Source: Methanococcus maripaludis | GTDB taxonomy: Archaea > AGJL01 > Methanococci > Methanococcales > Methanococcaceae | Assembly (NCBI RefSeq): GCF_002945325.1 | Contig: NZ_CP026606.1 | Location: 960,001-992,000, forward strand | DNA: 32,000 bases | Direction: 5' to 3' | In this document: positions 16,338-16,699 of the stretch, in pieces | Numbering within the stretch: position 1 is the stretch's first letter | Layout of the letters: each line of letters begins with the position of its first letter | Notes under the pieces: model-generated | Databases searched by the model: none | What the model was told of the DNA's origin: nothing | What the model saw: only the letters and a program-made list of their open reading frames with translations | Made by a program: the position numbers and the translations under genes

Positions 16338-16366
16338 TTTTCGGGTTTTCGAGTTTCATGTATATA
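16338..16366 (+). repeat. Left arm of a 29-bp inverted repeat
   Basis: The arm reads ttttcgggttttcgagtttcatgtatata. It matches the reverse complement of 16671-16699 at 25 of 29 positions without gaps. Looser similarity extends to about 16398. Confidence 0.85.
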
Positions 16367-16670
16367 ACATGGTTTTGTTTTGAATTTGTTTTTTGAGATT
16401 TCTGGTTTTTTTATATATTTAACCATGCTTTTAATGGTTATATTATATATAATAATTATATAATGCTTTTTTATAATATATATCTATTAAAACCATTCTT
16501 TTTAGTATTTATTATATTATTTAACTTTATTTTTATAAAATAACTTTTTTTATTTATTATTATATTATTATATTAATTATATTTTATTATTATACATATA
16601 TAGGTTAAAAAAGTAAAATAAATGTATAATTAATTTTTTATAAACAAAAAAATCAAAAAGAGACACACCA
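16367..16670. other. Extremely AT-rich core between the inverted arms (candidate DNA-unwinding element)
   Basis: 304 bp. By hand count, 16441-16620 contains only about a dozen G/C in 180 bp. The plus strand is T-rich on the left flank and A-rich on the right flank. A 7-bp-stem hairpin lies at 16420-16440. Confidence 0.4.
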
Positions 16671-16699
16671 TATATACATCATACTCGAAACACCGAAAA
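16671..16699 (-). repeat. Right arm of the 29-bp inverted repeat
   Basis: The reverse complement reads ttttcggtgtttcgagtatgatgtatata. Looser similarity extends outward to about 16643. Confidence 0.85.

Follow-up and report, generated by a model that had tools for sequence, protein, structure and literature searches.

A conserved inverted pair of boxes around an AT-rich core in the predicted chromosomal origin region of Methanococcus maripaludis and other Methanococcales

Several archaeal chromosomal replication origins, among them Sulfolobus oriC1, Pyrococcus oriC and Aeropyrum oriC1, follow the layout ORB(-)/DUE/ORB(+), in which origin recognition boxes (ORBs) of opposite orientation enclose a DNA-unwinding element (DUE). 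Among class I methanogens, the oriC of Methanothermobacter thermautotrophicus lies beside cdc6 and combines many short repeated boxes with AT-rich DNA. Here we describe an element for which we predict an ORB(-)/DUE/ORB(+)-type layout, located at positions 16338-16699 of a 32-kb stretch of the Methanococcus maripaludis chromosome (positions 960,001 to 992,000 of NZ_CP026606.1; this whole stretch is called the window, and its numbering is used throughout). The element consists of two copies of a conserved sequence, here denoted box 1, on either side of an AT-rich core, and it lies close to the genes for a putative initiator, Mc-pRIP, and for the replicative helicase MCM.

The arrangement of Orc1/Cdc6-dependent archaeal origins has been summarised in the Ori-Finder-Arch preprint (10.64898/2026.08.15.744077), and M. 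thermautotrophicus oriC is the only methanogen origin that has been studied experimentally (PMC3984812). How replication starts in the order Methanococcales is treated as an unresolved question in reviews, which point to the lack of a recognisable canonical Orc1/Cdc6, to the presence of several MCMs and to the lack of an experimentally mapped origin (PMC3984812, PMC3914693, PMC5333045). Mc-pRIP, a distant Cdc6 homologue, has been proposed as the initiator of this order (PMC3531139, PMC4009838, preprint 10.64898/2026.08.15.744077), and oriC predictions adjacent to its gene are given in DoriC 5.0, Ori-Finder 2 and Gao 2014 (PMC3531139, PMC4164010, PMC4009838).

The box 1 pair and its AT-rich core

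A preliminary description of the window had reported a 29-bp inverted repeat, and the left arm indeed agrees with the reverse complement of the right arm at 25 of 29 positions (coordinates in Table 1). When the 629-bp intergenic region that holds the repeat (intergenic region 2, IGR2) was shuffled 300 times with dinucleotides preserved, this value was never reached; the best shuffles, seven in number, had 24 matches. Taken by itself, this test makes the arm repeat modestly significant; the decisive support comes from its conservation. An inward-facing pair of box 1 copies, one pair per locus, was found in 16 genomes or contigs, spread over five genera of Methanococcales, including M. voltae, M. 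aeolicus, two Methanothermococcus, Methanotorris igneus, Methanocaldococcus (villosus, indicus, 16A, 28A and a jannaschii-like contig) and several metagenome-assembled genomes (MAGs). Box 1 is about 28-30 bp long, has the order-wide consensus ctATACATACATGCnACTCGAAAAYTCGAAA and is composed of two modules, TAYATAYAT toward the core and a tandem YTCGAAA(A) toward the outside. An alignment of 28 arms from 14 genomes yielded the consensus ctA-TACATACATGCnAC-TCGAAAAY-TCGAAA, with conservation of at least 80% at most positions, and the spacing between the 28-nt boxes ranged only from 304 to 333 bp in 14 genomes. The core between them, with 13-25% G+C (75-87% A+T), was barely alignable across the genomes examined and contains almost no conserved sequence.

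The same difference is seen within the species. Among seven strains of M. maripaludis, none of the 58 arm columns was variable (0/29 in each arm), compared with 41 of 305 columns in the core (13%) and 61 of 205 in the right flank; at the rate of the core, zero variation in the arms has a probability of P = 2.3e-4. Because of the conservation across the order, the fixed spacing and the invariance of the arms among strains, these comparisons indicate that the arms are under purifying selection within M. maripaludis and constitute a sequence-specific site with a constrained spacer length. A 28-position weight matrix built from 32 arms was used to scan both strands of the window and found three sites of at least 3 bits, namely the left arm (42.8 bits), the right arm (31.8 bits) and a third site upstream of the RNase P RNA (Table 1).

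The pair is always located between the convergent 3' ends of two order-specific winged-helix genes, which encode proteins of 173 and 360 aa in M. maripaludis and are separated by 500-630 bp in every genome. Because it lies between convergent 3' ends, IGR2 needs no promoter, yet the spacer has been retained.

The core was described previously as nearly free of G and C, and our counts agree with this, including the hand count of 13 G/C in the 180 bp at 16441-16620. Nearest-neighbour energies place the lowest stability of any 100-bp duplex in the window at 16502-16601, with -87.9 kcal/mol where the mean is -124.8 (standard deviation 11.4), and the IGR2 core was the least stable DNA of the whole sequence in five of the nine sequences analysed (the window and eight loci). 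DNA that is AT-rich and of low predicted stability, as looked for in an origin, therefore lies between the boxes. IGR2 contains no open reading frame (ORF) longer than 33 aa and has no Rfam match at E <= 1, and a hidden small gene or structured RNA was set aside on these grounds. The fold of the unit as single-stranded DNA (z = -3.8) merely restates the complementarity of the arms.

Several finer details of the preliminary description fared less well. TTTATATA is present at 16410-16417, as described, but it occurs eight times in the window and lacks conservation. The 7-bp stem TAACCAT/ATGGTTA at 16420-16440 exists as well, but an uncompensated substitution breaks it in strain S2. A switch from T-rich to A-rich sequence holds for the window, where the AT skew is negative over 16269-16588 and positive over 16589-16908, but not for other species. 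Since they are not conserved, the hairpin, TTTATATA and the switch were not counted as evidence. The continuation of the symmetry for about 30 bp on the inner side of the arms is weaker than described: 18 of 31 positions match without gaps, where 13.9 are expected from composition, and they mostly reflect T-rich sequence facing A-rich sequence.

Additional repeats accompany the pair in some other genomes. In the thermophiles, a second inverted pair, TTGTGATAAT, lies within the first, about 45 bp inward from either box 1; M. maripaludis does not have this pair. One or two further box 1-like copies are present in M. aeolicus, Methanotorris igneus and Methanocaldococcus, with no equivalent found in M. 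maripaludis. One of them overlaps the stop codon of the ~350-aa gene, and the second, in Methanocaldococcus, lies about 300 bp inside its coding region.

Gene neighbourhood, box 2 and candidate proteins

The element is 1.2 kb away from the Mc-pRIP gene, with the 173-aa gene in between, and 1.3 kb away from the MCM gene; the window also carries an archaeal rRNA operon and the RNase P RNA. The region shares 99.9% identity with GCA_013761135.1 and 92.5% with strain S2, whose arms are located near 48.96-49.32 kb of BX950229. No publication on MMP0031-33 was found in the literature searched.

Table 1. Coordinates of the box 1 element, its neighbours and related sites (window, positions in the 32-kb stretch of M. 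maripaludis; L numbers, loci of other genomes in our comparison)
Feature	Sequence	Positions	Strand	Remarks
MptA-type GTP cyclohydrolase	window	12942-13892	minus	
Mc-pRIP	window	13910-15136	minus	408 aa; AAA+ with ArsR-type winged helix, putative initiator; AAA_16, ATPase_2, HTH_5
Intergenic region 1 (IGR1)	window	15137-15746		610 bp
Solo half-box	window	15212..15227	plus	TCGAAA-repeat module only (TTCGAAAAACCGAAAG); 75 bp upstream of the Mc-pRIP start codon
Box 2 array	window	15250..15659	plus	five direct repeats (A/T)ATTGTGAATAT; starts 15250, 15280, 15436, 15466, 15648
173-aa ArsR-like protein	window	15747-16268	plus	3' end facing the left arm
IGR2	window	16269-16897		629 bp; holds the inverted repeat
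Left arm, full box 1	window	16338..16366	minus	minus-strand reading TATATACATGAAACTCGAAAACCCGAAAA, plus-strand reading TTTTCGGGTTTTCGAGTTTCATGTATATA; 25/29 inverted repeat
AT-rich core, candidate DUE	window	16367..16670	none	304 bp; 12.8% G+C, 39 G/C
Right arm, full box 1	window	16671..16699	plus	TATATACATCATACTCGAAACACCGAAAA; facing the left arm
360-aa protein	window	16898-17989	minus	C-terminal helix-turn-helix; 3' end facing the right arm
MCM replicative helicase	window	17996-20086	minus	MCM, MCM_OB, MCM_lid; corresponds to MMP0030 in S2 by synteny (BX950229)
Third box 1-like site	window	28545-28572	minus	TGAGTATATGCTACCCGAAAACTCGAAA; 20.2 bits
(A)CTCGAAATACCGAAA sites	L011; L012; L023; L028	2711-2738; 2213-2240; 1864-1891; 6353-6380		
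Further box 1-like copies	L012; L008	6324-6352; 6085-6100		
Further box 1-like copies	L020; L025; L017	4790-4817, 4495-4522; 7038-7065, 6743-6770; 1349-1376, 1633-1660		

A module of the ~350-aa gene, IGR2, the ~173-aa gene, IGR1 and Mc-pRIP, in this order, is also found in M. voltae, M. aeolicus, Methanothermococcus, Methanotorris igneus, Methanocaldococcus villosus and the M. jannaschii-like contig, and across the order both Mc-pRIP and MCM are usually adjacent to the box 1 pair. Methanocaldococcus indicus (CP186926) departs from this arrangement: here, Mc-pRIP (at 1.311 Mb) and the box 1 pair (at about 0.865 Mb) are 446 kb apart. The pair remains between genes for proteins of 175 and 343 aa, and Mc-pRIP is located 24 bp downstream of a NiFe-hydrogenase subunit gene (loci L013 and L017). 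The pair is therefore most tightly linked to the genes of the 173-aa and 360-aa types, and M. indicus may be regarded as a natural experiment that has separated the initiator gene from the predicted origin.

The G+C content falls to 0.19-0.21 over about 2.5 kb (15000-17500), compared with about 0.32 in the surrounding genes, and the dip includes the coding regions of the 173-aa and 360-aa proteins. Such a dip could suggest an integrated plasmid or provirus that carries an extra MCM. This possibility was rejected, since the genes from MCM to TFB keep their order in Methanococcus, Methanothermococcus and Methanotorris, the core module is conserved in Methanocaldococcus villosus and the M. jannaschii-like contig, and this MCM copy, MMP0030 in strain S2, was reported as the only essential mcm gene (PMC3984812). 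Because the block is syntenic across the order, the dip does not represent a foreign insertion.

Two observations concern the wider neighbourhood in Methanothermococcus and Methanotorris. A conserved (A)CTCGAAATACCGAAA is found near the 3' end of a CobQ-like amidotransferase gene, about 350-1000 bp upstream of the MCM start in the two loci where genes were called (L011 and L012), and could reflect either coding conservation or another binding site. Furthermore, the archaellum/type IV ATPase (T2SSE) gene of these genera contains an intein (L010-L012, at about 14.7-17.2 kb), for which a LAGLIDADG homing endonuclease domain was recorded in Methanothermococcus; the T2SSE gene of M. maripaludis (549 aa, window positions 7061-8710) is free of it.

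The box 2 repeats of IGR1 form pairs with a spacing of 30 bp, arranged in units of about 186 bp. Their reverse complement fits the expression TT[TA][GT]ATTCA[TC][GA]AT[AT]T[AT]T[AT] that is listed as the Methanococcaceae ORB of Ori-Finder 2 (Table 1 in PMC4164010). Because of this match, we infer that the oriC predicted for these genomes in DoriC and Ori-Finder, the region adjoining Mc-pRIP, corresponds to IGR1, an assignment that uses the motif in place of published coordinates. The box 2 motif TYRTGAATMWA recurs in IGR1 across the order as direct pairs with a spacing of 30-31 bp. The oriC of M. jannaschii was reportedly placed by Zhang & Zhang in 2004 in a 687-bp region next to MJ0774; IGR1 of the M. 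jannaschii-like contig has a length of 687 bp. In strain X1 (L004), IGR1 measures 424 bp instead of 610 bp and looks short by one unit of about 186 bp, and the copy number of the published ORB would then be polymorphic within the species. Altogether, the origin region looks bipartite in its sequence, with direct box 2 arrays in IGR1 and the inverted box 1 pair with its AT-rich core in IGR2.

Parts of box 1 recur outside the pair. The solo half-box in IGR1 abuts a TATA-like TTATAAAAAA on the strand of the Mc-pRIP gene, and TTTCGxxTTTTCGAA followed by TATAAAAA precedes Mc-pRIP by 38-206 bp in M. voltae, M. aeolicus, Methanothermococcus, Methanotorris and the M. jannaschii-like contig. Six species thus have, at the Mc-pRIP promoter, a TCGAAA-repeat half-box that directly abuts a TATAAAAA-type TATA box. 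Autoregulated genes show this layout, and the half-box is probably an operator of the Mc-pRIP promoter. The third site in the window lies between the T-run of the 5S rRNA terminator and the 5' end of the RNase P RNA (28581), at about -36 to -9, and no obvious TATA box was found at -26 in the region upstream of this RNA. It may be a regulatory site of RNase P RNA or a sign that box 1 can act as a promoter element.

Three proteins encoded around the element are candidates for binding it. Mc-pRIP has a weak match to the orc1/cdc6 family TIGR02928 (E 1.7e-5); its homologues are 68-84% identical across the order, with a mean column identity of 81% in the winged helix, and the 408-aa protein is identical in strains S2, X1, KA1 and OS7 and in two draft genomes. 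The 173-aa protein, whose gene neighbours the pair in all genomes that have the module, possesses an N-terminal ArsR-type winged helix (CzrA, E 1.4e-5; archaeal centromere-binding AspA, E 0.003) and an invariant C-terminal WWCxxCQSxxCxH metal-binding motif. For the 360-aa family, ten matches at E <= 0.001 were obtained among 1.84 billion representatives, and the family is confined to Methanococcales, judged by all but the three weakest matches (E 1.8e-5 to 5.2e-4), which cover only short stretches. Hhalign aligned the family with Mc-pRIP in the C-terminal winged helix only (probability 79%, E 1.6e-5), and the family's sequence profile found no Orc/Cdc6 relative. In Foldseek searches with an AlphaFold2 model (pLDDT 74), the top full-length matches were ORC subunits and Aeropyrum pernix ORC1/ORC2 at E 3e-4 to 2e-3 (Drosophila ORC chain B, E 3.2e-4; A. 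pernix ORC1, 2v1u_A, E 6.6e-4), with TM scores of only 0.2-0.25. Toward the N terminus an AAA+-like domain is predicted, whose Walker A and B motifs, xTPSLKKT and ILVFDxHD, are degenerate. The modelled fold thus weakly resembles the AAA+-lid-winged-helix architecture of ORC/Cdc6, and the 360-aa protein is possibly an inactive initiator paralogue. Conservation of the 173-aa and 360-aa proteins is 55-60%. As a soft argument, the near-invariant box 1 would match the near-invariant winged helix of Mc-pRIP, and the variable box 2 would match the less conserved 173-aa and 360-aa proteins.

Origin, regulatory site or mobile element

The preliminary description had proposed that the inverted arms and the easily melted core form an origin, and this is the best-supported reading of the element, given the conserved box, the fixed geometry, the vicinity of initiator and MCM genes and the least stable duplex of the window. 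We think it rather likely, with clear room for doubt, that the predicted chromosomal origin region of M. maripaludis has its ORB(-)/DUE/ORB(+)-type core at 16338-16699; from the sequence we infer protein binding, the assignment of a protein to the box, unwinding and the initiation of replication. In such an origin, the two box 1 copies of about 28-30 bp, which face each other across about 300 bp of very AT-rich DNA, would be occupied in opposite orientation by an origin-binding protein, for which Mc-pRIP is the likeliest candidate. The flanking 173-aa and 360-aa winged-helix proteins may bind together with Mc-pRIP or in its place. MCM, the product of a neighbouring gene, would be loaded between the boxes by the bound protein; melting would begin in the core, and two forks would depart in opposite directions. 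Initiators commonly autoregulate, and the half-box at the Mc-pRIP promoter could let the same protein regulate its own gene. The origin would then have two parts, of which IGR1 with its direct box 2 repeats is probably the auxiliary or regulatory one. Only tentatively, and with the odds somewhat against it, we suggest the more specific division of labour in which the box 1 pair and not the box 2 region is the site of MCM loading and first melting, read by Mc-pRIP with the 360-aa protein, the 173-aa protein or both.

A number of points weigh against an origin at this site. The gap of about 300 bp between the inverted boxes is longer than in the characterised origins of Sulfolobus and Pyrococcus. 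Box 1 is not a canonical ORB, an identity that was rejected because the TCCA..GAAA consensus is absent from both IGR1 and IGR2; the one match in the window, at 31341, is no more than expected by chance. The literature searched holds no experimental replication data for any Methanococcales origin, and Z-curve analysis of M. maripaludis S2 was inconclusive according to a review (PMC3984812). Published predictions use box 2, so the box 1 element may be accessory and not the initiation site, and IGR1 was slightly less stable than the IGR2 core in four of the nine sequences. The occurrence of one pair per genome rests on four sister genomes, and for M. maripaludis on the 32-kb window and 20-kb loci of six strains. 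Finally, all four copies in the window, including those at the Mc-pRIP promoter and the RNase P RNA, share the polarity of TTTCG repeats followed by a TATA-like element and then by the gene or core, which fits a transcription-factor site or a promoter equally well.

These last observations lead to two regulatory explanations. Box 1 could be the operator of a lineage-specific transcription factor, such as the 173-aa or the 360-aa protein, and serve as a regulatory or architectural site, with the box 2 region as the true origin; the inverted pair might then stop transcription of the convergent genes, as a roadblock or terminator, or resemble a centromere, and have no direct role in initiation. 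The TCGAAA-repeat module at the Mc-pRIP promoter in six species is consistent with this, as are the 20-bit copy 9-36 nt upstream of the RNase P RNA, the linkage of the M. indicus pair to the genes of the 173-aa and 360-aa types rather than to Mc-pRIP, the ArsR-like nature of the 173-aa protein with its AspA match, and the use of box 2 in the accessible parts of the published oriC predictions. However, the arms are located downstream of both flanking genes, with no obvious promoter to regulate, and a fixed inverted geometry of about 320 bp around the least stable DNA is unexpected of an ordinary operator. Sites for Orc1/Cdc6 and DnaA are known at non-origin promoters as well, and because of this the extra copies of box 1 do not argue against an origin. 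We therefore consider an operator unlikely, if well worth bearing in mind.

Alternatively, each arm could be a promoter that fires into the core, the TTTCG repeats being a TFB recognition element (BRE) or upstream element and (C)ATGTATATA the TATA box; the resulting convergent, overlapping non-coding transcripts might even activate an origin. The polarity from TTTCG repeats to a TATA-like element, the same as at the Mc-pRIP promoter and the RNase P RNA, and the fixed polarity of the core speak for such promoters. The TATA-like sequence is (G)TATATAA in the M. maripaludis arms and TATGTATA in most of the order. However, the arms have 7 nt between CGAG and the TATA-like element, whereas the two abut at the Mc-pRIP promoter; the order-wide TACATACATGC retains C and G positions, unlike a site for the TATA-binding protein, and is conserved far beyond usual promoters; and the AT-rich core into which transcription would run has no Rfam match and almost no conserved sequence. 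Convergent promoters therefore seem improbable to us.

The preliminary description had also considered a non-autonomous mobile element, a miniature inverted-repeat transposable element (MITE) of about 360 bp with 29-bp terminal inverted repeats. Size, the 25/29 terminal repeats and the AT-rich interior are indeed those of a MITE, but a search for target-site duplications was negative: the flanks ATTTTTTAGATTATC and ACAAAAAAAATCAAA (...GATTATC and ACAAAAA...) share no direct repeat of 2-10 bp, with offsets of 0-3 allowed. There is no other copy of the unit in the window, and the element occupies the orthologous, syntenic site in all 16 genomes or contigs, across five genera. A scan of the genome collection with the exact pattern TAYATAYATNNNNYTCGAAANNNCGAAA returned ten stretches, eight of which are from Methanococcales, each with a single locus and among them the four complete genomes of M. 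indicus, sp. 16A, sp. 28A and Methanothermococcus Ax23. With one mismatch allowed, the inverted pair is found in all eight, its box starts being separated by 342-350 bp. The other two matches are single boxes in bacterial MAGs (gammaproteobacterial and Bacteroidales), with a rough chance expectation of about two. The scan returned no M. maripaludis, M. voltae, M. aeolicus, M. igneus or M. jannaschii, though their sequences match the pattern. Metagenome contigs contained further single pairs with unchanged spacing, viral contigs had no match to the box 1 pattern, and plasmids had no similarity. With one pair per genome in the four complete genomes and the same syntenic site in every genome examined, the MITE explanation was rejected and retains hardly any probability.

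An invertible DNA switch, in which a site-specific recombinase would flip the ~300-bp segment at its inverted repeats, would resemble fim-type switches in its geometry of inverted repeats around such a segment. However, with orientation defined by the flanking genes, 89 of 91 pairs of species gave a better core alignment in equal than in opposite orientation, and the core is colinear in all seven M. maripaludis strains, and no conserved recombinase gene was found nearby in the loci compared. A switch is rejected because the orientation of the core is fixed, and we regard it as extremely unlikely.

If the more specific division of labour proposed above is correct, a non-canonical origin-recognition system would have replaced the pairing of ORB and Orc1 in this order, and the fixed distance of about 320 bp would point to a defined nucleoprotein architecture. 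The analysis supplies a precise order-wide cis element (a 28-30-bp box, present as an inverted pair with a fixed AT-rich spacer of 304-333 bp) and three candidate trans factors encoded around it (Mc-pRIP and the 173-aa and 360-aa proteins), and the question of initiation in Methanococcales becomes directly testable in a genetically tractable organism. The oriC entries of current databases may also mark the adjacent intergenic region instead of the site of unwinding. For the construction of M. maripaludis vectors, a minimal origin of defined extent would be of practical value.

Comparison with known origins

The oriC predictions adjacent to Mc-pRIP agree with our interpretation in the locus and in the proposed initiator. 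In its accessible parts, the published prediction is based on the box 2 motif, with direct repeats only, in the intergenic region directly beside Mc-pRIP, where the box 2 repeats that match the published ORB are 0.7-1.1 kb away from the box 1 element. The box 1 element, in contrast, lies in the next intergenic region and consists of an inverted pair of a different and much better conserved box. No description of this pair was found in the accessible literature, the motif tables of DoriC 12 and Ori-Finder-Arch being outside its coverage.

With M. thermautotrophicus oriC the locus shares a class I methanogen host, repeated boxes and AT-rich DNA. That origin, however, has canonical 13-bp mini-ORBs, TT[TA]CACTTGAAAT (Table 1 in PMC4164010), and a bona fide Cdc6, neither of which is found at the box 1 locus.

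Compared with Orc1/Cdc6-dependent origins in general, the element is similarly intergenic and part of a replication island beside the initiator and MCM genes, has two conserved boxes of about 30 bp inverted around an AT-rich stretch that is predicted to melt easily, is accompanied by extra box copies, including one at the promoter of the presumed initiator, and occurs at one locus per genome in the four complete genomes. It differs in that box 1 is unrelated to the canonical TCCA-N-GAAA-GGGG ORB, that Mc-pRIP, the presumed initiator, has an ArsR-type instead of a Cdc6-type winged helix, that a small gene stands between the module and the initiator gene, and that the distance between the boxes is long and fixed at 304-333 bp. 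Judged by this comparison, the layout is that of an ordinary archaeal origin, at a locus where an origin had already been predicted in silico.

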